Shown here piece after piece: positions 2,978-28,769 of a stretch of DNA of 28,769 nt; within the stretch, counting starts at the first letter, position 1, and each line of letters starts with the position of its first letter. The notes beneath the pieces are model-generated. The model was not told where the DNA came from. It saw only the letters and a list, made by a program, of their open reading frames with translations, and did not search any database. Made by a program: the position numbers and the translations under genes. The stretch lies in the IMG/VR virus record IMGVR_UViG_2529292720_000011; one strand, given 5' to 3'. Source of the stretch: a virus. Taxonomy: Duplodnaviria; Heunggongvirae; Uroviricota; Caudoviricetes.

Positions 2978-3328
2978 ATGAAAAAAAACGCTAATAATCC
3001 ATACTCCAAATTTCGTAATGGCGTAGAACGCCATGTACACCACGTCGCTACCAGTGCATCACGTAGTAACAGTCGCTATAACCTTAACGAGACGCACGCA
3101 ACACCGGATGGCCACGCTGTAAAACAAATCGGCGAGCATGCCTGGCTGATTGAGAAAGCTGGAATCGTGGTCCACAAATGCCCACGCAATCCGTTTACCG
3201 GAAACCGCATTTTTGCTCTAAGCAGTGGCGACAATCAGTTCGGGCAGGATTTCACATTATACGAAGCACTTCGCACGGTTGATCGTCTGCTTCGCGGGCA
3301 AAGTTTTATTAAACAGGCTGATTTATAA
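2978..3328 (+). CDS. Hypothetical early protein (116 aa)
   Basis: ORF in early operon, same strand, tight spacing; no recognisable motif. Confidence 0.4.
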   Translation: MKKNANNPYSKFRNGVERHVHHVATSASRSNSRYNLNETHATPDGHAVKQIGEHAWLIEKAGIVVHKCPRNPFTGNRIFALSSGDNQFGQDFTLYEALRTVDRLLRGQSFIKQADL

Positions 3329-5815: not shown

Positions 5816-8623
5816 ATGACGGCAGAGTACATCAGGGACTGGCAGCAACCGCGCCACGCAGTGGGGCGTGAAGGAACGGGGATCCCCGCTCCTGAATCCG
5901 CGCTTTCCTCCTGGCTGGATGCCTACCGGGCAGAGAACGAGCGCTGCCAGGAAATGGCTGATGCGGCGTTCTCCGCCACGCCGCTGGGCAACCTGATTAA
6001 TAAAAGCCTGGACGCACAGGAAAAACAGGACAAAACCATCACACTGGCAGGAGACGCCAGAAAGCAGGTACGCGGCGCGGTGGATGAAGCCATGGCCTCG
6101 CTGCGCCTGCTGCCATCCTATCTGCGCGATCCGCTTATTCGCCACCTCTCCTTCCTGCGCAAAAAACAGGAATCTGACCGCCAGAAAGGTAAAAAGAACC
6201 AGCAGGCTGAACGCTACGCGCGCGGGACCCTGCGCAAAATATTCGAACGTCTGGATCGCACTGACGGGCGCTGGCTGACACCGGGTTATCGCTCCCTTGC
6301 CGGGCGCGAACGCCTGGACGATTTGCTTTCCCTGCCGCAGCTCAACAAGCACCAGATACAGACGCTGGCCACCATGACGGCGGCGATGTTCAGCAGCACC
6401 TTCGAAACACTCTGCGATGGCTTTGGTGCCAGAGATGGCGAGCTGACCATGGATGTAATGTTGAAGGCTTACCGGATGCTGGCCCGTATCGCATTACGCC
6501 TGCACATCATGCCGCCACATTACGAAGCCCTGAACAAGAGCGATCCGGATACGGAACTGTTACCGGGCGCAATCCTTCGCCTGACCTGTGCGGAATGGTG
6601 GAAACGCAAATTGTGGCTGTTACGTTGCGAGTGGAGAGAAGAACAACTCCGCGCCGCCTGTCTGGTTTCCAGAAAAACATCACCCTATCTGAGCCAGGAC
6701 GCGTTAAGCGAGTTTCGCGCACAGCGCGAGAAAACACGCGATTTCCTGAAAAGTTTCATGCTGGAAAACGAAGACGGGTTCACGATTGATCTCGAGACAG
6801 TGTATTACGCGGGAGTAAGTAACCCGGTTCACCGTAAGGCAGAAATGATGGCCACCATGAAGGGGCTGGAACTTCTGGCCGAAGCCCGTGGCGACAAAGC
6901 GGTGTTTCTGACTGTCACCTGCCCGTCAAAATACCACGCCACAACAGAGAACGGTCATCCGAATCCCAAATGGAACGGGGCCACCATGCGCGACTCCAGC
7001 GATTACCTGGTTAACACGTTTTTTGCGGCGGTCCGCAAGAAACTGAACCGCGACGGCCTGCGCTGGTATGGCATCCGCACGGTGGAGCCTCACCATGACG
7101 GCACCGTGCACTGGCATATGATGGTCTTTGCACATCCGGACGAGATTGAAACCATCGTGTCCCACGTCTGCGATATTGCCATTCAGGAAGACCGCCACGA
7201 GCTGGGCGATGACATAACTCCGCGTTTTAAGGCGGAGTACGTAGACGGCTCAAAAGGCACACCAACCAGCTACATCGCCACCTACATCGGAAAGAACCTG
7301 GACAGCCGCGCCGTGGATGGCATCGACCAGAAAACGGGCAAGCCACGCGTTGACCACGAAACCGGAAAATCAATGGCCGAGAGCGTGGAACGCGCCATCG
7401 GCTGGGCGCGCCTTCACCGGGTCCGCCAGTTCCAGTTCTTTGGCATCCCCTCCCGTCAGGTGTGGCGTGAACTCCGCCGCCTTGCCAGCCAGATGGCACG
7501 CAACCCGGAAGGCCCGCAACGGCTGAAGGATGACGCAATGGATGCGGTACTCGCTGCCGCTGATGCAGGATGTTTTGCCACCTACATAGAGAAACAGGGC
7601 GGCGTACTTGTTCCACGCAAAGACTACCTGATTCGCACCGCCTACGACCTCGCCGATGAGCTGAACGATTACGGCGAACAGAGCGTACAGATTTACGGGA
7701 TCTGGTCACCACTCATCGGGGAATCCTCCCGTGTGTGCACGCATCCGGATAACTGGAAGCTGGTAAGACGCAAACCGGAAGCGGAAGACAGCGCCCGCGA
7801 AAATGGTTTTGACCTTCAGGGCGGCCCTGCCGCCCCTTGGACTCGTGGCAATAACTGTCCCCGTGTACAGGAAACAGGCAACAGCGGGACAGAACAGTCG
7901 AAAGAACGGCCAGCACCGTGGCCGCAGCTTCCTGACGGCGTTGAAGTGAACGAATGGATGCGCTCACTGAAACGGCACGAACGCCGGGCGCTGATGCGTT
8001 CGCTTCGTGACAAACAGGTAAAAAACAGCAGTGATGAAATGCAGAGCTGGACACAGAGCCGCAAACAGCAGCGGCCTTTGCCTGATAACCACGAATTACT
8101 CGCTAAAGAATGGCGGGAGTCTGCCGAATCTCTCGGCCTGCATATCGGTGAACAGCAGATGCAGCACCTGCTACGGGGCGGCAGCCTGTACGTTGACGGC
8201 AGCATCATTGCACCGCAGGGATATGAAATTGTACGCAAACCGGATACCCGCCCGGACAGCCGAATCACGCAGCTCTGGCAGCACCTGAGCCGTAATCACG
8301 GCGTAAGCAGCACGGAGATCCGCCATAACCCGGTCGCCAGCTATCTGGCACAGCTGGGGGCATCAGACCCCGAAGCCGCCGCACGCCTGGCATCCGCACT
8401 TCAGCAGGATCAGAACACCATGAAAACACCCGTTACCGTGCTTTCTGACATGCTGCGCGCCATCCGCGACGCAGAGCACGCACAGAGAATCAGTGAAACC
8501 ACTGAACGCGCCAGCCGCAAAGCAGACCTGCTGCAGGGTGGCCTGACCAGTGGAAACAAAAAACAGACAGAAACGGGATCCACAAATCCCGTAAATGAGC
8601 AAAAAACGCGCCGCGATATATGA
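5816..8623 (+). CDS. A: Replication initiation endonuclease gpA (rolling-circle initiator, P2 A family), 935 aa
   Basis: Motifs VTCPSKYHA and TVEPHHDGTVHWHMMVF (HUH-type histidine motif) plus tyrosine-rich catalytic region; position after the early operon as in P2/186. Confidence 0.85.
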   Translation: MTAEYIRDWQQPRHAVGREGTGIPAPESALSSWLDAYRAENERCQEMADAAFSATPLGNLINKSLDAQEKQDKTITLAGDARKQVRGAVDEAMASLRLLPSYLRDPLIRHLSFLRKKQESDRQKGKKNQQAERYARGTLRKIFERLDRTDGRWLTPGYRSLAGRERLDDLLSLPQLNKHQIQTLATMTAAMFSSTFETLCDGFGARDGELTMDVMLKAYRMLARIALRLHIMPPHYEALNKSDPDTELLPGAILRLTCAEWWKRKLWLLRCEWREEQLRAACLVSRKTSPYLSQDALSEFRAQREKTRDFLKSFMLENEDGFTIDLETVYYAGVSNPVHRKAEMMATMKGLELLAEARGDKAVFLTVTCPSKYHATTENGHPNPKWNGATMRDSSDYLVNTFFAAVRKKLNRDGLRWYGIRTVEPHHDGTVHWHMMVFAHPDEIETIVSHVCDIAIQEDRHELGDDITPRFKAEYVDGSKGTPTSYIATYIGKNLDSRAVDGIDQKTGKPRVDHETGKSMAESVERAIGWARLHRVRQFQFFGIPSRQVWRELRRLASQMARNPEGPQRLKDDAMDAVLAAADAGCFATYIEKQGGVLVPRKDYLIRTAYDLADELNDYGEQSVQIYGIWSPLIGESSRVCTHPDNWKLVRRKPEAEDSARENGFDLQGGPAAPWTRGNNCPRVQETGNSGTEQSKERPAPWPQLPDGVEVNEWMRSLKRHERRALMRSLRDKQVKNSSDEMQSWTQSRKQQRPLPDNHELLAKEWRESAESLGLHIGEQQMQHLLRGGSLYVDGSIIAPQGYEIVRKPDTRPDSRITQLWQHLSRNHGVSSTEIRHNPVASYLAQLGASDPEAAARLASALQQDQNTMKTPVTVLSDMLRAIRDAEHAQRISETTERASRKADLLQGGLTSGNKKQTETGSTNPVNEQKTRRDI

Positions 8624-8699
8624 AGCGCGCACAAAACAGGCGAAAGCGGGATTTAAAAATCCCGTAAACGGTTAATTAACCAACATAAGGAAAATCGAC

Positions 8700-9659
8700 A
8701 TGAAAATTTGTATCGACGACGGCTCCACCAACATCAAGCTGGCATGGACTGAGAACGGCGAACGCCGCAACGCCATCAGCCCGAACAGCTTCAAGTCGGA
8801 ATGGTCTGCGCCGTTCGGTGGCACGCATCCCGCGAACTACATGCTTGATGGCGTGCGCTATGGCTTTGATCCGGTCAGCGATCGTTTTGTCCAGACGACT
8901 GACACGCAATACCAGTACAGCGATGTGAATGTAATCGCCATTCATCACGCGCTGGTCAAATCAGGCATCACGCCACAGGAGGTGGATGTGGTTGTCACCC
9001 TGCCACTGAGCGAGTATTTCGACACAAACGCACAGCCGGACATGGCCAACATCAACCGCAAAAAAGCGAACGTCATGCGCCCGGTGGAGTACCAGAACGG
9101 CGAAGCATTCACTATCCGTAACGTACGGGTTATGCCTGAATCCATTCCGGCTGGCTTTAAGGCACTGGCTGACATGAGTCCGTTTGAATCCCTGCTGATT
9201 GTGGATTTGGGCGGAACCACGCTGGATGTGGCAAAGGTTCAGGGGCAGCTGGCAGGTATCAGCCAGGTGTTTTGCGATCCAAACGTAGGCGTTTCCCTGA
9301 TGGCTGATGCCGTGCTGTCGGTGATGGCCACTAACGGTATGCGTACCAGTCACCACATCGCCAATACCATTATTGAGCACCGTCACGATGAAGCCTGGCT
9401 GCGCCAGCACATTCACAATGACGCGCATTACAACAGCCTGATGGCGGTTATTCGTGAAAAGGAGGAGACACTGAAACAACGAGTGATCCGCGCGCTGGCG
9501 GGTTTTTCCGGTTACGGGCGGGTGATGGTTGTCGGTGGAGGGGCGGAGATTGTGGCACCCGCTATCCGCGAAGCCTGCGGAGTTAATGCGACTTTCATCG
9601 CGGACGGGGTGCCACAGTTTGCTCTGGTTAATGGGCTGTACGCAATGAACAAGGAGTAA
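8700..9659 (+). CDS. parM: Actin-like segregation ATPase, ParM/StbA family
   Basis: N-terminus MKICIDDGSTNIKLAW...ISPNSFKSEW matches the R1 ParM N-terminus as recalled (MLVFIDDGSTNIKLQW...ISPNSFKREW); phosphate-2 LIVDLGGTTLDVA and adenosine VMVVGGGAEIV motifs present; 319 aa. Confidence 0.85.
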   Translation: MKICIDDGSTNIKLAWTENGERRNAISPNSFKSEWSAPFGGTHPANYMLDGVRYGFDPVSDRFVQTTDTQYQYSDVNVIAIHHALVKSGITPQEVDVVVTLPLSEYFDTNAQPDMANINRKKANVMRPVEYQNGEAFTIRNVRVMPESIPAGFKALADMSPFESLLIVDLGGTTLDVAKVQGQLAGISQVFCDPNVGVSLMADAVLSVMATNGMRTSHHIANTIIEHRHDEAWLRQHIHNDAHYNSLMAVIREKEETLKQRVIRALAGFSGYGRVMVVGGGAEIVAPAIREACGVNATFIADGVPQFALVNGLYAMNKE

Positions 9660-9663
9660 ACCA

Positions 9664-9975
9664 ATGACGACACCAACCAGAAGAATAAGTTTCTATCTGA
9701 AGCCAGCTGCCGTCAAGAACGAAGGAGAAGCATGCGCATGGCTGGACAGCCTTACACCAGAAGCCCGCAAAAGCGGCCAACGCGTGGCTTTTCTGGCCGG
9801 GCTGGCACTTCTGAAGACGAATCCGGCAGAGGCTTACCGACTGGCCGCATGGGCTGATGATGAGATGTTACCTGTGACACAAATCAGCTCAAAAAAGTTT
9901 GAAGCACAGTCTGCACCAGTGGCTAAGATAACCAGCCAGATGGCTGGGAATATCCGGGCGTTATTTCCTGGGTAA
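9664..9975 (+). CDS. parR: ParR-like RHH centromere-binding adaptor (103 aa)
   Basis: Immediately downstream of parM; RRISFYLKP...WLDSLTPEARKSGQRVAFLAGLALL...NIRALFPG parallels R1 ParR as recalled (RRTIAFKLNP...TLDSIPQGERSRL...ALTAGLALY...ILRSLFP). Confidence 0.6.
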   Translation: MTTPTRRISFYLKPAAVKNEGEACAWLDSLTPEARKSGQRVAFLAGLALLKTNPAEAYRLAAWADDEMLPVTQISSKKFEAQSAPVAKITSQMAGNIRALFPG

Positions 9976-10102
9976 AAGCATCTGCGCGAAAAATGCTCAC
10001 ATTTATAGAAACAGTATCATTCCATTTGGCGCACTTACTTCAATAATCGATCTGTTAAACAAATAGATTGTCTATTATCTATCGATTAAAACGATCAATT
10101 AT

Positions 10103-10131
10103 CTTGACAGTAATGTGCCTTTTTGTAAGAT
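10103..10131 (+). promoter_or_regulatory. Candidate sigma70 promoter
   Basis: TTGACA, 17-bp spacer, TAAGAT (TTGACAgtaatgtgcctttttgtAAGAT). Confidence 0.35.
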
Positions 10132-10236
10132 CGTTCGCATTGTGAGCGACAAGATAATTGCGCGGCATTGTCCATGCAAAACGCCCCAATAGCAGCAACT
10201 ATTGGGGCGTAGAACTCGGTCGGACTCACTTAACCT

Positions 10237-10323
10237 GATATGCGTGCCTTCCGAAGTAAATCAAAATGTGCGTCGTATATTTTATTGCTTACACGCACCT
10301 CTGTAAAGGCACGCATATTTTTC
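10237..10323 (+). other. Structured RNA leader / terminator-like element
   Basis: 13-bp arms atatgcgtgcctt (10238-10250) and aaggcacgcatat (10306-10318) enclose a nested hairpin gtgcgt/acgcac and are followed by a T-run; sits 17 nt upstream of the GTG at 10340. Confidence 0.4.
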
Positions 10324-10339
10324 CTATGAGGTAAATAAA

Positions 10340-10609
10340 GTGCGGGCTAAAACAGGTATTTGCAAGAACCCTCATCGTTATAACCCAACATTTCTGTCTC
10401 TCCCTGAATATCAAGGACAAGAAGGTCGGCACAAATGCGCTGCCTGTGCTTTTGAGCTAGGCATAAAAGATGCGCTTGAAGGACGCGCTATGGCTCAGAA
10501 TGATTTAGTTTTAGCTAACATTCCGTTTAGCCAGGCTGGAACTGTAAGGCACAGAGATGCTTATGAAGCATATGTTAGTGGTTGGCGATTAATACACAGC
10601 AACAATTGA
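10340..10609 (+). CDS. Hypothetical small Cys/His-containing protein (89 aa)
   Basis: GTG start with GAGG 8 nt upstream; C-x(3)-H ... H-K-C-A-A-C pattern may form a small zinc-binding knuckle; followed by a strong terminator. Confidence 0.5.
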   Translation: MRAKTGICKNPHRYNPTFLSLPEYQGQEGRHKCAACAFELGIKDALEGRAMAQNDLVLANIPFSQAGTVRHRDAYEAYVSGWRLIHSNN

Positions 10610-10616
10610 TATTTTT

Positions 10617-10642
10617 GAAGCGCCGATAAGGCGCTTTTTTTG
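10617..10642 (+). terminator. Rho-independent terminator
   Basis: gaagcgcc-gata-aggcgc stem-loop followed by TTTTTTT. Confidence 0.65.
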
Positions 10643-10643
10643 T

Positions 10644-10673
10644 TTGCACGATAGTGCACAAGTTTGCACAATT
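10644..10673. repeat. Three direct repeats of TTTGCAC/AGTGCAC with 10-bp periodicity (iteron-like)
   Basis: tttgcacgat / agtgcacaag / tttgcacaat read directly; a fourth GTGCAC at 10736-10741. Confidence 0.5.
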
Positions 10674-11169
10674 TTTTTGAACGACTTTTTGTACTTCCGG
10701 CCCGCGTGGCGGCTGGATCCGTCAAGGATCCGTACGTGCACAAAAAACGCGTTTTTTCTACGCGCAGGTGACGGGGGAACAGCCCGCGTTTCAGGGGGTA
10801 AATAGCATTCCCTGAACGATGTCGCAGAGACACAACAGAATGGCCATATTTCTCACGCTGAGCATGAAAAAGGCGTGAGGGCTTTTGATTTGATGGGGGG
10901 AAAGGTAAGGCCGTCAAAATCGCACTGAGGCAGCGAGAACATACAGTCAACGTGGTGGGATTGCGTAAGAGTCTGACCGTCGATGGTGGCGATAAACTGG
11001 AAGGCGTCGTGAAATTATCTGATTGATACAGGAGCTGGAGAGTCGGGGCATAAATTTTTTATGCCCCGGCGAAGCAGCAGACAAGCGAAGCGCGTCAGCG
11101 ATACGGCACCTTGCCGACCATACTTCGTAAGTGCAAAATACGAGCAAAGAAATCAATGGAGGCTGTCTT

Positions 11170-11694
11170 ATGGTCATTAATTACAAGCAGTTAAGAGAAA
11201 AACGGGAGCAGGTAAAGGAGAGCTTTCGCCGCAATGAAGATCTGACCCCGCTTGTACGCCTTGCCCAGGGCATTGTTGATGCTTATGAAATCTCGCTGGA
11301 GCTGCCATCACAGACCTGGACAGATAGCGACGGTAATCGCCAGCATTACGTTTCATGCGGACTGGAAGCAGCCGAAGGATTTCGCAGAATGCCTTTATCT
11401 CAGATCCCTGCCGCTACCCCCAAAGCAAGGGGCGGCAATGATGAGCGAAAACTGATTTTCAGCATTGAGACAGTGGTTGACGACACACCTGGCGAAGTCG
11501 CCTTCGTGCATACTCCTCTTTCGATCGCAATGTATAACGATGAAATACAGGTTCGCGTTAATAATAATATCGTGCCACTTAAAGAAGGTAATTCACCCTA
11601 CACCACCGTTTGTGAAGCCATTCAATATTACGTTTTCTCTGAAATTGATAATCTCAAGCCTGACGGCACCCAGAAAATGGTTCAGCTCTGGTAA
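11170..11694 (+). CDS. Hypothetical cargo protein (174 aa from ATG 11170)
   Basis: GGAGG 7 nt upstream of ATG 11170 (ORF track starts at 11131); convergent with portal gene; no motif recognised. Confidence 0.5.
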   Translation: MVINYKQLREKREQVKESFRRNEDLTPLVRLAQGIVDAYEISLELPSQTWTDSDGNRQHYVSCGLEAAEGFRRMPLSQIPAATPKARGGNDERKLIFSIETVVDDTPGEVAFVHTPLSIAMYNDEIQVRVNNNIVPLKEGNSPYTTVCEAIQYYVFSEIDNLKPDGTQKMVQLW

Positions 11695-11726
11695 AAAGGA
11701 CAGCCCCATCACGGGGCTGTTTTTTC
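11693..11726. terminator. Bidirectional intrinsic terminator between convergent genes
   Basis: AAAAA-ggacagcccc-atca-cggggctgt-TTTTTT; overlaps the last codons of the portal gene. Confidence 0.6.
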
Positions 11727-12755
11727 ATCAAGAAGAGCATAAGAGTTAAAACGGATCACCTCTTCGCCAAGCCAGTCATTGATGTGCTTCATGGCCTCCA
11801 TAACGGGCATCAGCTCGTTAATTGCGTAAACCCGCGCGGCCTTCTCCACATCACCAAACGCACTTTTTTCGCCCGGCATCGCCCCCATCAGTTGCGGCGG
11901 AACACGGTGCGCAGCCAGCACATCATCACGGGATGCCGCCTTAACATTCATGAACTCATCTTTTGCGGTGATCTGCTGGAACGGCAAAATTTGCACCCCC
12001 TCTTTGCCCCCGTTGGGCGCATGAATGAGCACGTTTTTAAACGCACCACCACCACGTGCCCCCTGTAGCGTTTCTTTCAGGGAGTCCATGCTTTCGCGGT
12101 TTACCTGCGCTGCACCGATGTAGATGATGCACCCGGCGTGGGATCCGTTGTCGTAGTACAGTTTTCTGAACATGTCCGCCGAATGAGAAAGGCTGGCCGA
12201 GAGTAATGCGCCAAGATATTCCGGCATGCCGTAGATTTCCTGGTTAATATCCGGATTCATCAGGTGGCACACTTTGCCAGGACGAAACTGAAACGCGTCC
12301 TTGCCATCCTGCACATACCACCATGATTCAAGATCGCTTCCGCGTCGCATGTATTTCGCCAGGGCGTGCCGTAATTTAAGCGGTTCGCCGAGCATATTGC
12401 TCCGAAGCTCAAGGAATGCGTTACCGAACACAAACCAGTCCAGCGCCAGCGCCGAGAAATCCTGCCGGGAAAGCAGCGGGTGCGGAATATAGCAGCCGAG
12501 CAATACATTGCGCTTAAAGTAAAGCGCAGACTGATGCCAGGACGTTTGCCGGGCAGCTCTTGCCAGACCGTACCAGTCCACCGGGGTTTCATACCACCGC
12601 CCGTTATCAGCACAGTACATATTGTCCAGCAGGTCATGCCCGGTCAGGCGATAAGGACCATCAAATGTGAATGCACTGAGCGATGATTCTTTCCTGAGCG
12701 CATCAGCGAGATCAATGCGTGAACTCATGCGCACTTTTTTATTTTTTCTGCTCAT
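11709..12755 (-). CDS. Q: Portal protein gpQ (P2 Q-like)
   Basis: 348 aa (P2 Q about 344 aa as recalled); adjacent to and co-oriented with the terminase large subunit. Confidence 0.8.
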   Translation of the reverse strand: MSRKNKKVRMSSRIDLADALRKESSLSAFTFDGPYRLTGHDLLDNMYCADNGRWYETPVDWYGLARAARQTSWHQSALYFKRNVLLGCYIPHPLLSRQDFSALALDWFVFGNAFLELRSNMLGEPLKLRHALAKYMRRGSDLESWWYVQDGKDAFQFRPGKVCHLMNPDINQEIYGMPEYLGALLSASLSHSADMFRKLYYDNGSHAGCIIYIGAAQVNRESMDSLKETLQGARGGGAFKNVLIHAPNGGKEGVQILPFQQITAKDEFMNVKAASRDDVLAAHRVPPQLMGAMPGEKSAFGDVEKAARVYAINELMPVMEAMKHINDWLGEEVIRFNSYALLDEKTAP

Positions 12756-14506
12756 CAGAACTCCATAACCGTGAAACGCTCGTTTTCTCCTTCGCCGCCA
12801 ATCGGTTCATTAATGACAGCAAGCATGGTTGCCCACGCAAGGTCGCCGTGGCTGATCCCCCTCGCTCGGTCCGTTTCGTAAGTGATAAAGCCGCCCGGTG
12901 TTTTCACCTTACGCACGGCGTTAAAGGCCGCGACCAGCTCGCGTTCGGCACGATCGTATTCCCACCGCCCGGCACGCATTATTTGCAGCATTTTCAGTAC
13001 CAGCGACCGTTTTGATGACAGCGTGAAGGTGTACGGAATAGCAGCAGGGAAAAACCGTTTCACTATCTGATAAACGGCATCCCCGTGCCCGCCAGTCGCA
13101 TCAATGCCGATGTGTTCCACGTTGTAGCGACACGTGAACTCTTCAATGACTCTGGCCTGTTCTTCAAACTCCAGCCCCTGAACGCGTCGCGTCTCCACCG
13201 TTCGAAAACGGCCACCAGGAACAGCCGGAGGAACCACCACGGACACCGCGCCGCTGTCGCCGTTTCCACTGCTGCCGTTTGCGTCATACCCAATCCATAC
13301 CGGACGATTCCCCATCGGGCGGGGAGCAAAAGGTTTCCAGTCTTTCCAGTCGTCGTATCCATCAACACCGCAGCCAATCAGGATATTCAGGTTAAATGCC
13401 GATTCCCCTTCGCGGACAAACTCACACATATAGAGATTGCGGAACTCGTCTTCGGTGTTTTCATCACGAATTTCATCAATATCGGTGTGTTTCCAGCCGT
13501 GATTAACCACATCTTCCAGCGTGACAATTTGCCGCCACGTCCGGTCGGGGCAGATAAGTCCGTTATGCAGCGTTTTCCAGTCCACAGAAAAACGCTGGCG
13601 TTTATGCGCGGCCTTTTTCTCGTTCCAGCGGTCGCCGTTCCAATAGACGTATGCCTCGTGCGTTTCGGTGGATGGCGTGGAGAAGTAGGTGCGCCGCAGT
13701 CCGCTGAGGGTTGCCATAGCGCCAGCCACCTTGCGCAGTTCAGCAAAGCGACTGACCCAGAAAAATTCATCAAAATAAAAATTGCCTGTGTAGGACTGTG
13801 CCGTCGCAGCAGAAGTACCGAGAAAATGCAGTTCTGCGCCGTTGGAGAGGATGATTTTATCGCCCCCTTTCAGCTCCACATCAACTTCAGCCGCGGCCTT
13901 CTGAATAATGCTTTTAAACTGGAACGCCTGACGACGCGACGCAGACAAAAAAATCTGGTTACGCTGGTAAGGTTGTGCCACATCGTCACGCAGCGCCATC
14001 AGCAGTGCTTCCTGTGCAAAATACCAGGTCGCCCCAATCTGTCGGGATTTCAGGATCATCCTGTTACGTATCCCGGCTTCACTGCAAAGGGTCAGGGAGT
14101 CAAACCAGCCCCGCTGATGCCACTCCAGCCTGCTGATGATTTTTTCCCGCAGTGCGGCAATCTGCTCCGGCGTGAAATGATTTTTAAGTTTTTTCGCCCG
14201 GCCTTTCTTTCCTGTGGCCGTCGCATCCGGCTGGCCATCATGCAGTTTTTTAAGCTGCCGGGTCAGCAGGTCTATTTCCTTAAAGTCACCACCTGTTTTA
14301 TTCTGTTTTTCAGTAAGCTGGATGAGGCGCGCATCGATGGACTGCGTGACACGCTGCACGGGGGGCGTTTCATCCCACTGGTCGCGTTTTTTCCACGCAT
14401 AAATCGTGTTCGGGTTTATTCCCATCAGACGTGATATTTCTGCGGGCGGATAACCCTGCCAGTAAAGTTGCCGCGCACGCTGGCGCACAAAAGCGTCCTG
14501 AATCAT
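12755..14506 (-). CDS. P: Terminase large (ATPase) subunit gpP
   Basis: 583 aa; N-terminal MIQDAFVRQRARQLYWQGYPPAEISRLMGINPNTIYAWKKRDQW is typical of P2 gpP; divergent from the capsid operon. Confidence 0.9.
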   Translation of the reverse strand: MIQDAFVRQRARQLYWQGYPPAEISRLMGINPNTIYAWKKRDQWDETPPVQRVTQSIDARLIQLTEKQNKTGGDFKEIDLLTRQLKKLHDGQPDATATGKKGRAKKLKNHFTPEQIAALREKIISRLEWHQRGWFDSLTLCSEAGIRNRMILKSRQIGATWYFAQEALLMALRDDVAQPYQRNQIFLSASRRQAFQFKSIIQKAAAEVDVELKGGDKIILSNGAELHFLGTSAATAQSYTGNFYFDEFFWVSRFAELRKVAGAMATLSGLRRTYFSTPSTETHEAYVYWNGDRWNEKKAAHKRQRFSVDWKTLHNGLICPDRTWRQIVTLEDVVNHGWKHTDIDEIRDENTEDEFRNLYMCEFVREGESAFNLNILIGCGVDGYDDWKDWKPFAPRPMGNRPVWIGYDANGSSGNGDSGAVSVVVPPAVPGGRFRTVETRRVQGLEFEEQARVIEEFTCRYNVEHIGIDATGGHGDAVYQIVKRFFPAAIPYTFTLSSKRSLVLKMLQIMRAGRWEYDRAERELVAAFNAVRKVKTPGGFITYETDRARGISHGDLAWATMLAVINEPIGGEGENERFTVMEF

Positions 14507-16617: not shown

Positions 16618-17418
16618 ATGATTACTCCTGCACAGCAACACTGGCAGAACGTGATGGCACAGCGCGCAGGCCGGGCGAATGAAGGCGTGGACCATGCCGC
16701 GCGTACCGCGCATGAAGAGGTGCTGTATCGTCTGCGTCTGGCACAGGCCCGGCTTAAGGGCGTACAGGCCAGAAGCGCGAAAGCCGCCATCAAAAAAGAG
16801 TTATTGCCGGACTTTTCCGGCTGGATTGAGGGAACGCTGGAGGCTGACGGCGGGCAGCAGGATGAAGTGATTGCCACGCTGATGGTGTGGGCGATTGACT
16901 GCGGCGATCTTCCGCTGGCGCTGCGTATTGGTGCATATGTGGTCCGTCACAACCTCATCATGCCGGATAACTTTGGACGTACTGCTGCCACGGTACTGAC
17001 CGAAGAAATCTGTAATCCGGTACTGACGCAGGCCGGGACGGATGCCGACGCGGATTTGTCCGCCTTTATCGAACCACTGGACACCCTCCGGGAGATTGTC
17101 ACCGACCAGGACATGCCGGACGAAGTGCGCGCCAAATTATGCAAAGCGTGCGCCTTTGCCCGCCGTGGCCTGACCGATGCGGACAGCATGGCCTCATCAC
17201 TGAAGCTGCTGCGCGAAGCGATGCACCTGAACCCGAACGCAGGTGTGAAACGCGAGATTGCAACCCTTTCCCGCGCCCTGAAAAAAGCCGATTCCGCAGC
17301 CGCACCAGAAGATGCCAGCACACCGCAGGCGCAGGACGAAAGCAGCAAAAGTAAAAAGACAACGCGGAAGCCTGCAACACGAAAAACCACCGCGACGCAG
17401 AAGGCGAAGCGCGGTTAA
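16618..17418 (+). CDS. M: Terminase small (endonuclease) subunit gpM
   Basis: MITPAQQHW...KKELLPDF...DMPDEVRAKL...AGVKREI parallels P2 gpM; basic C-terminal tail. Confidence 0.8.
   Translation: MITPAQQHWQNVMAQRAGRANEGVDHAARTAHEEVLYRLRLAQARLKGVQARSAKAAIKKELLPDFSGWIEGTLEADGGQQDEVIATLMVWAIDCGDLPLALRIGAYVVRHNLIMPDNFGRTAATVLTEEICNPVLTQAGTDADADLSAFIEPLDTLREIVTDQDMPDEVRAKLCKACAFARRGLTDADSMASSLKLLREAMHLNPNAGVKREIATLSRALKKADSAAAPEDASTPQAQDESSKSKKTTRKPATRKTTATQKAKRG

Positions 17419-28479: not shown

Positions 28480-28769
<290 letters not shown>

Follow-up and report, generated by a model that had tools for sequence, protein, structure and literature searches.

A predicted cos site with helically phased TGCAC boxes between the cargo locus and the portal gene of a P88-like prophage

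The window analyzed here is the whole 28,769-nucleotide stretch of IMG/VR virus record IMGVR_UViG_2529292720_000011. The genes in this part of the window follow the order A, ParM, ParR-like, cargo, the non-coding gap under study, Q and P, which matches the annotation in P88-type phages (Table 1). Positions 10600–11098 were 91–97% identical to Escherichia phage P88, PhiR44_2, 520873 and 500465-2, Citrobacter phage phiSM and Xuanwuvirus P88_4B11. On the basis of this identity and the shared gene order, the window is assigned to a P88-like (Xuanwuvirus, Peduoviridae) prophage of the P2 family, a type common in E. coli. The gap is flanked on one side by the variable locus that follows A and on the other by the portal gene Q, which runs away from the gap, and this is the layout of the P2 family: in P2, the cohesive ends sit in the corresponding interval, from the old/tin cargo to Q. 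The element also encodes the cognate P2-type terminase, consisting of gpM and gpP. The small subunit, gpM, was 62% identical to that of phiT5282H, 60% to those of Klebsiella phages and 49% to that of SEN5, all of which have a cos of the TGCAC type described below. The gpM of P2 was absent among the best 60 records in this comparison, the divergence being too great.

Table 1. Genes and features in and around the gap under study. Offsets are relative to the first base of the 19-mer at 10767.
Feature	Position	Strand	Remarks
Replication gene A	5816-8623
ParM	8700-9659		PF06406/PF21523
ParR/StbB-family protein	9664-9975		PF10784
89-aa cargo ORF	10340-10609
Intrinsic terminator, GAAGCGCC..GGCGCTT and T-run	10617-10641	+	Of the 89-aa cargo gene; upstream of and outside cos; from terminator scan
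TTTGCAC / AGTGCAC / TTTGCAC	10643-49, 10653-59, 10663-69		TGCAC cores start at 10645, 10655 and 10665
Whole predicted cos unit (packaging signal)	10645-10800	+	Left third of the stretch
Three direct, helically phased boxes, TGCACGA, TGCACAA, TGCACAA	10645-10671	+	Offsets -122, -112, -102
T-tracts (T7, GAACGAC, T5)	10673-10694	+	Directly after the boxes; conserved across genera in the consensus
GC-rich imperfect dyad CCGGCCCGCGTGGCGGCTGG	10697-10716	+
GGATCCGT pair	10715-22, 10726-33		11 bp apart
Proximal box TGCACAAAAAA	10737-10747	+	Offset -30; belongs to the published 55-bp P2-family core
Dyad region left of the predicted nick, AAAAAACGCGTTTTTT and ACGCG..CGCGC	10742-10765	+	AAAAAACGCGTTTTTT is a perfect palindrome at 10742-57
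Predicted cohesive-end sequence (cosN) GGTGACGGGGGAACAGCCC	10767-10785	+	19-mer; nicks uncertain by 2-3 nt
Lineage-specific non-coding spacer	10801-11043		Between cos and the old portal terminator
Perfect 11-bp hairpin at the position of the portal-operon terminator (tQ)	11044-11068	minus	Arms 11044-54 and 11058-68; folding z = -4.15
Inserted module	11099-11708	+	Between cos and Q
174-aa ORF of the module	ATG 11171 to 11694	+	No Pfam match
Module's own terminator	11700-11726
Portal Q	11709-12755	minus	Homologues annotated in P88 and relatives
Terminase large subunit gpP	12755-14506	minus	Adjoins Q; homologues annotated in P88 and relatives
Terminase small subunit gpM	16618-17418	+	PF05944, E = 5.7e-37

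A preliminary description of the stretch had listed iteron-like repeats, palindromes, a hairpin and a possible cohesive-end sequence, GGTGACGGGGGAACAGCCC, in about 490 bp of non-coding DNA. Every one of these features is present in the sequence, mostly 1 nt to the left of where it had been placed. The cohesive end of P2 quoted there is exactly as in the P2 record, and the count of 13 matching positions out of 19 is correct. As support for cos, however, this match is at chance level: nine sites in the window match the P2 sequence at 13 or more of the 19 positions, four of them at 14, compared to an average of 5.5 in shuffled sequences. The case for a cos site depends on the architecture of the region and its conservation, and not on the 19-mer match.

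A 55-bp core is conserved in P2-family cos sites, as cited from Ziermann & Calendar 1990 in passages of later papers (PMC9594776, PMC3931495, PMC5694545). The elements by which such a core is recognized, a TGCAY box followed by an A-run about 29–31 bp before the cut, a dyad, a GGYGW start, a G-run and CGCG, are all found at 10737–10790, which by these features is a diverged copy of the core. Counterparts of the proximal box are found at -29 in P2 (GTGCATTAAAAC), 186 (CTGCATTAAAAC) and SEN5 (TTGCACAAAAAA), and GTGCAGAAAAAG occupies the same place in phiCTX (-28) and Smp131 (-29). P2 and P4 have a CGCCC..GGGCG dyad where the window has the dyad region at 10742–10765; the sequence itself changes from genus to genus, and what persists is its place and its dyad character. 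The cos sites of P2, 186, PSP3 and P4, which give 19-nt 5' cohesive ends, agree with the predicted site in several respects. They too are flanked by the variable locus after A and by Q, and have TGCAY and an A-run some 30 bp ahead of the cut, a dyad immediately next to it, and a GC-rich cohesive sequence with a GGYGW start and a G-run, to which CGCG is joined. Further out, at offsets of about -101 to -124, there are three distal TGCAY boxes, and the terminase genes are of the P2 type. The cohesive sequence of the window differs from that of P2 at 6 of 19 ungapped positions, and there are effectively 2 nt fewer before the G-run. The window also differs from the P2 group in having boxes of the type TGCAC(AA) rather than TGCAT, and an extra GGATCCGT copy and T-tracts in the middle of the site.

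The exact limits of the predicted overhang are less clear. Published cohesive ends start with GGYGW in P2, 186, Smp131 and phiRSA1 (GGTGAGG...; ends reported from earlier experimental work), which favors a top-strand nick before 10767. In a MAFFT alignment with P2, 186 and SEN5, the overhang is shifted by 2 nt, to 10765–10783. The sequence of one metagenome contig breaks off within the core, at the base corresponding to 10782 (...GGACAG) and beyond 9 nt that match the end of a Nextera adapter, which is no more than suggestive and may place the bottom nick after 10782. P88_4B11 lacks CCCGC (10783–87), and its record begins 77 nt to the left of cos. Because these indications conflict, we give 10767–10785 as a best guess, with an uncertainty of 2–3 nt for each nick. 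Among the IMG/VR matches listed (at least 120), no locus ended inside the core. One IMG/VR relative (L016) keeps its homology as far as GCGCAGG and has unrelated DNA from there to the tQ hairpin, so that a recombination breakpoint coincides exactly with the cut predicted here. A second candidate, GCGTGGCGG (10703–11), has a 9-nt identity to the cohesive end of 186, and was rejected because it varies in a close relative (L014) and lies at the wrong distance from the proximal box. In the literature, records and contigs searched, we found no mapped virion ends for any P88-like phage, and in the literature searched no description of a P88-like cos, and the P88 paper is silent on cos.

The distal boxes fall outside the published 55-bp core. 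Their positions were compared in reference records that start at the cohesive ends (P2, 186, P4 and PSP3; cos is annotated in P2 and 186) by joining the right and left ends of each record and measuring how far each TGCAY motif lies from the base at which the cohesive sequence begins. This gave TGCAT boxes at -123, -111, -101 and -29 in P2, at -124, -111, -101 and -29 in both 186 and P4, and at -120, -111, -101 and -29 in PSP3. SEN5 has boxes at -134, -111, -101, -37 and -29. The window has four TGCAC boxes, at -122, -112, -102 and -30. Between P4 and P2, the sequences between and outside the boxes are unrelated, yet the box distances are retained. Among the IMG/VR matches listed (at least 120), 84 unique cos regions have the near box at -31 and the other boxes mostly at -123, -113 and -103; of the 90 copies in which a near box occurs, 57 have the three distal boxes at exactly these offsets, and conservation in the 84 unique copies falls to nothing to the left of -124. 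In an alignment of 13 sequences with MAFFT, the TGCA of boxes 2 and 3 and of the proximal box, the A-run and the G-run of the cohesive sequence are invariant. The comparison with the P2 and 186 cos regions that the preliminary description had proposed produced matching box distances and invariant columns. The repeats that it had called iteron-like belong to the predicted cos site, and equivalents lie at equal distances in P2, 186, P4 and PSP3. In phiCTX and Smp131, the near box and A-run are present and the repeats further out are apparently of a CGCAG type; the phiCTX record annotates repeat families around cos.

The DNA between the distal and proximal boxes is less uniform. The T-tract segment at 10673–10694 is possibly bent intrinsically. 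Dyads analogous to CCGGCCCGCGTGGCGGCTGG are found at the same place in P4 (CCGCGCC..GGCGCGG), 186 and phiT5282H (CCGCC..GGCGG), and L014 carries uncompensated changes in this dyad. In the GGATCCGT pair, the second copy (GGATC) alone is conserved beyond the genus. Two relatives (L011 and L013) are without box 3 and the following 82 bp; either the middle of cos is dispensable or these prophages are defective.

P88-like sequences become homologous precisely from the first box onward; the DNA to the left of 10643 is unrelated cargo. On the other side, the homology that joins P88-like sequences, remoter genera and satellite-sized elements stops shortly after the 19-mer. In Enterobacter phage phiT5282H (Novemvirus), it is confined to 10639–10788 of the window and includes an identical 24-nt block, GCGCAGGTGACGGGGGAACAGCCC. 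Klebsiella Reipivirus phages have the same cos layout. More generally, phiT5282H, Reipivirus Kp4845-1 and its relatives, and Senquatrovirus SEN4 and SEN5 have the same TGCAC type of cos, with boxes at about -123, -113, -103 and -31 and a core, GCGCAGGTGACGGGGG(A/G), that is identical or nearly so to that of the window; they differ from it in the DNA that separates the boxes and in that beyond the right edge of the core, and cos is unannotated in their records. The ends proposed for SEN4 and SEN5, GGCGAGGCGGGGGAACGAG (PMC5261728), are the only ones in this group. Of 5426 complete E. coli genomes, 1101 (about 20%) have the unit with an identity of at least 90%; the matches listed mostly start at 10645, and no annotated feature lies under any of them. 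When species-representative genomes were scanned for this pattern, 23 loci with the same architecture were recovered, most of them from Enterobacterales. In 15 of these, Q lies directly on the cos-left side, and P is found there too (tblastn).

Several of the cos loci do not belong to phages, but to satellite-sized elements that encode an integrase, an 889-aa Toprim primase, an Ash-family protein and a P2-family major capsid protein. No portal or terminase match was found in the up to 8 kb examined per locus. One of them, the metagenome contig mentioned above, is longer than unit length and carries two cos copies 12.2 kb apart. The DNA that these elements have in common with the window is limited to 10645–10788 (L041 and L046), 10645–10796 (L036) or 10645–10809 (L053, from Escherichia sp.). 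Similarly, cos is the sole homologous region between P2 and P4 (PMC9122126). That the satellite-sized elements share cos alone, like P2 and P4, is the strongest comparative argument that the boxes and the core together make up the packaging signal. It is also what would be expected if this cos were sufficient in cis for packaging and were pirated by satellites.

Taken together, these comparisons make it very probable that 10645 to about 10800 is the cos site of a P88-like P2-family prophage. The earlier proposal, which located cos in the interval from the cargo locus to Q and took GGTGACGGGGGAACAGCCC for the cohesive end, is supported by the architecture of the reference phages and by the conservation of the site. 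After excision and replication, the gpM/gpP terminase would recognize four direct TGCAC(A)A boxes, of which three, 10 bp apart, would lie on one face of the helix about 100–120 bp from the cut, and the fourth 30 bp from it. The T-tracts and GC-rich dyads between the boxes would let the DNA bend or wrap, and the terminase would make staggered nicks in the GC-rich core around GGTGACGGGGGAACAGCCC, producing 5' cohesive ends of roughly 19 nt. The genome would then be packaged through the portal, gpQ, and after injection the ends would anneal, so that cos is formed again. In this scheme, it is the gpM binding to the boxes, the exact nicks and the bending that we infer. We consider it reasonably probable, by analogy, that the phased boxes are the binding site for gpM, like the R sites of lambda cosB. 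This part of the scheme is indirectly consistent with the better transduction by P2/P4 cosmids that have longer cos flanks, by about 11,600- to 50,800-fold over a shorter packaging signal (PMC9594776). No function assigned to the distal boxes was found in the literature searched, which did not include Ziermann & Calendar 1990.

Lambda cos (cosQ-cosN-cosB, with R sites for gpNu1 and the IHF site I1) follows the same logic as that proposed for the window, a nicking site with an adjacent array of small-terminase repeats and bent DNA between them. There is no sequence homology between the two, however, and the boxes of the window are direct repeats of 5–7 bp, whereas the lambda R elements are 16 bp. 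The IHF consensus WATCAANNNNTTR had no match anywhere in the window. The likeness to lambda cos is one of function and not of membership.

Other explanations for the repeats were considered. The prophage encodes ParM (PF06406/PF21523) and a StbB/ParR-family protein (PF10784), and the parC centromere of type II ParMRC systems, such as that of plasmid R1, typically has short direct repeats about one helical turn apart, so that the phased TGCAC repeats could be a centromere bound by the ParR-like protein, an alternative already raised in the preliminary description. The boxes, however, are neither upstream of parM nor adjacent to it. They lie downstream of parR at a distance of 670 bp, and the cargo in between is not the same in all relatives, while their distance to cos is fixed. 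Nor is their occurrence tied to ParM and ParR: boxes at equal distances from cos are found in P2, 186, P4, PSP3, SEN5, phiT5282H and 500465-2, none of which is among the 16 phage records that encode ParM, and ParM homologues are restricted to Xuanwuvirus records and the plasmid-prophage D6. Satellite-sized elements likewise carry the boxes and gave no ParM match. Moreover, a better parC candidate exists in the canonical position upstream of parM, where two 39-nt direct repeats with CGGGAT..ATCCCG dyads are found at 8557–8595 and 8630–8668. The occurrence of the boxes in phages and satellite-sized elements without ParM speaks against the centromere, which we regard as extremely improbable.

A replication origin that has these repeats as its iterons, or a set of sites for a regulator of the cargo, with cos confined to the GC-rich core, is also very unlikely, if somewhat less so. 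In P2, the first boxes do reach into the segment immediately preceding the start points of the old-tin transcripts, and boxes 2 and 3 together with the T-run score as a weak terminator-like hairpin. However, the cargo beside the boxes is wholly different among relatives while the boxes remain fixed relative to cos, and P4 has the P2 distances despite unrelated intervening and flanking sequence. The replication origin of P2 lies inside gene A, which also counts against origin iterons. A chance cluster of small repeats in functionless, recombination-scarred intergenic DNA would account for the perfect 16-nt palindrome (one in the window, 0.46 expected), for the GGATCCGT pair, which is unremarkable by itself (10 close 8-mer repeats of this kind, 3.7 expected), and for the 19-mer match, all of which are within chance expectation, as well as for the right two thirds of the stretch, which are variable spacer with a junction scar. 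It does not account for the triple box at 10-bp spacing, which occurs once in the window and in none of 100 shuffles, nor for the sharply limited conservation across genera and the presence of the unit in about a fifth of complete E. coli genomes. The conservation data refute this explanation for 10645–10800, and for the stretch as a whole we give it next to no credence.

The cos reading does not extend over the whole of the roughly 490 bp of the stretch. To the right of the cos unit, the remaining 330 bp or so are made up of spacer, the hairpin of an old terminator and the junction of a module. The spacer (10801–11043) is replaced by unrelated DNA in L016 and is divergent in L011 and L013. 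A 42-aa ORF of the relatives (P88 gp22 family; 10898–11026) was rejected as coding: variable columns number 5, 15 and 7 at the three codon positions, one relative has a frameshift, and the GTG start is GGG in the window. An Rfam scan of 9900–11800 (E ≤ 1) gave no match in the stretch. (Two sub-threshold antisense-RNA matches were seen outside it, at 10181–10210.) Folding of the spacer RNA on both strands gave z-values of -2.3 to +1.2, so there is no case for a structured RNA in the spacer and the hairpin at 11044–11068 alone stands out, and a sigma-70 promoter scan returned nothing in the stretch.

Perfect 11-bp hairpins like that at 11044–11068 occur at two places in the window, with 0.01 expected. 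In P88, the Q stop codon is 27 nt upstream (on the minus strand) of the hairpin at the tQ position, and in P2, tQ lies 6 nt after the Q stop. The position of the hairpin, which is without a U-tract, suggests that it is the former terminator of Q. In the window, it is separated from Q by the inserted module, the left junction of which coincides exactly with the TCA (11095–97) that serves as the Q stop codon in P88-type relatives, and Q has had its last 12 codons exchanged. In the alignment, relatives fall into a group with the module and a group without it. The interval between cos and Q is about 330 bp in the window, or about 940 bp with the module, compared to 187 bp in P2. The cos-Q interval (cosL-Q) is an insertion hotspot in P2-like phages (PMC5694545), and the interval from A to cos is a hotspot for defense genes (PMC9122126).

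A broader proposal, which we put forward tentatively and which as a whole may well not hold, combines these observations. The four TGCAY boxes, at about -123, -112, -102 and -30, would be a real terminase-recognition element, equivalent to cosB, of the enterobacterial P2-family phages examined, extending well beyond the 55-bp core. The TGCAT and TGCAC types would represent separate groups of packaging specificity, and the elements of about 12 kb with a cos of the TGCAC (P88/Novemvirus) type would be satellites of P88-like helpers, unlike P4.

The cos unit is an ordinary, expected element in a widespread group of prophages, unsurprising to phage biologists, that has gone unannotated. Marking it would lead to correct genome ends for P88-like phages and would bound the defense and cargo hotspots on its two sides. 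The signal of about 150 bp could serve in cosmid and transduction tools for the P88-like group, though its practical value is modest. By this comparison, the predicted packaging signal that enterobacterial P2-family phages conserve covers about 150 bp with phased distal boxes, in place of the usual 55-bp core. A signal of this length may explain the up to 50,000-fold better transduction by longer cos fragments (PMC9594776).

The cos unit varied among relatives. In L016 (IMGVR_UViG_2579778812_000023), homology extended up to and including GCGCAGG and resumed at the tQ hairpin, the position of the portal-operon terminator; between these points lay unrelated DNA with another cohesive sequence (GGCGACGAGGG...). 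Two further loci, L011 and L013, displayed an 82-bp deletion between two copies of GTGCACAA (window 10654 and 10736), which removed the third TGCAC box and the GGATCCGT repeats. The contig QAKE01000006.1 begins at locus L041, of which nucleotides 1–30 read TACACATCT followed directly by CTGTCCCCCCGTCACC, and the contig is thus broken inside the cos core, directly after ...GGTGACGGGGGGACAG. This break may represent a physical DNA end. The 9 nt ahead of it are the same as the terminal bases of the Nextera mosaic-end complement.

Features flanking the cos unit (window coordinates).
Feature	Position	Description
Direct repeats	8557–8668	two 39-nt copies, 79% alike, CGGGAT..ATCCCG dyad in each
Gap after ParR-like gene	9976–10339	365 bp; ATCGAT/GATC-rich repeats and strong hairpin
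Strong hairpin	10181–10212	
89-aa ORF	10340–10609	directly after the gap
Gene module between cos and Q	11099–11744	174-aa ORF and own terminator
Module terminator	11700–11726	bidirectional-looking

The gap after the ParR-like gene and the 89-aa ORF constitute a variable cargo hotspot adjoining cos. The strong hairpin gave sub-threshold Rfam matches, on the minus strand, to ctRNA/sar antisense RNAs. Neither the 89-aa ORF nor the 174-aa ORF on the other side of cos had a Pfam match. The module that includes the latter is found in some P88-like relatives and missing from others, and the last 12 codons of the portal gene Q differ in sequence from those of P88, with the length unchanged. The ParM/ParR module is carried here by an integrating prophage. 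The 39-nt repeats, which span the end of gene A just upstream of parM, are a candidate, in the canonical position, for the parC centromere or operator of ParM/ParR.

In the spacer, the window has G at 10899, where all ten relatives aligned there have T, four of them being otherwise identical to the window over 601 nt. The change abolishes the GTG start of a small ORF (P88 gp22 family) that is annotated in relatives. Even apart from the change, this ORF does not look coding.

Window 28483–28759 matched positions 3181–3456 of L036, from Apirhabdus apintestini, with 76.6% identity over 278 nt, ≈3.5 kb away from the cos copy in that locus.

The cos unit (window 10645–10788/10809) was the only homology to the window in a set of satellite-like elements of ≈12 kb: L041/L046 (QAKE01000006.1), L053 (Escherichia sp. 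MOD1-EC7003), L036 (Apirhabdus) and L045 (Arsenophonus). Pooled over this set, though never all together in a single locus, were genes for an integrase, an 889-aa Toprim primase, an Ash-family protein and a P2-family major capsid protein; no portal or terminase match was found in the 8 kb or less examined per locus. These elements look like satellites of P88/Novemvirus-type helpers and, with a capsid gene of its own present in the set, differ from the P2 satellite P4, which has none.
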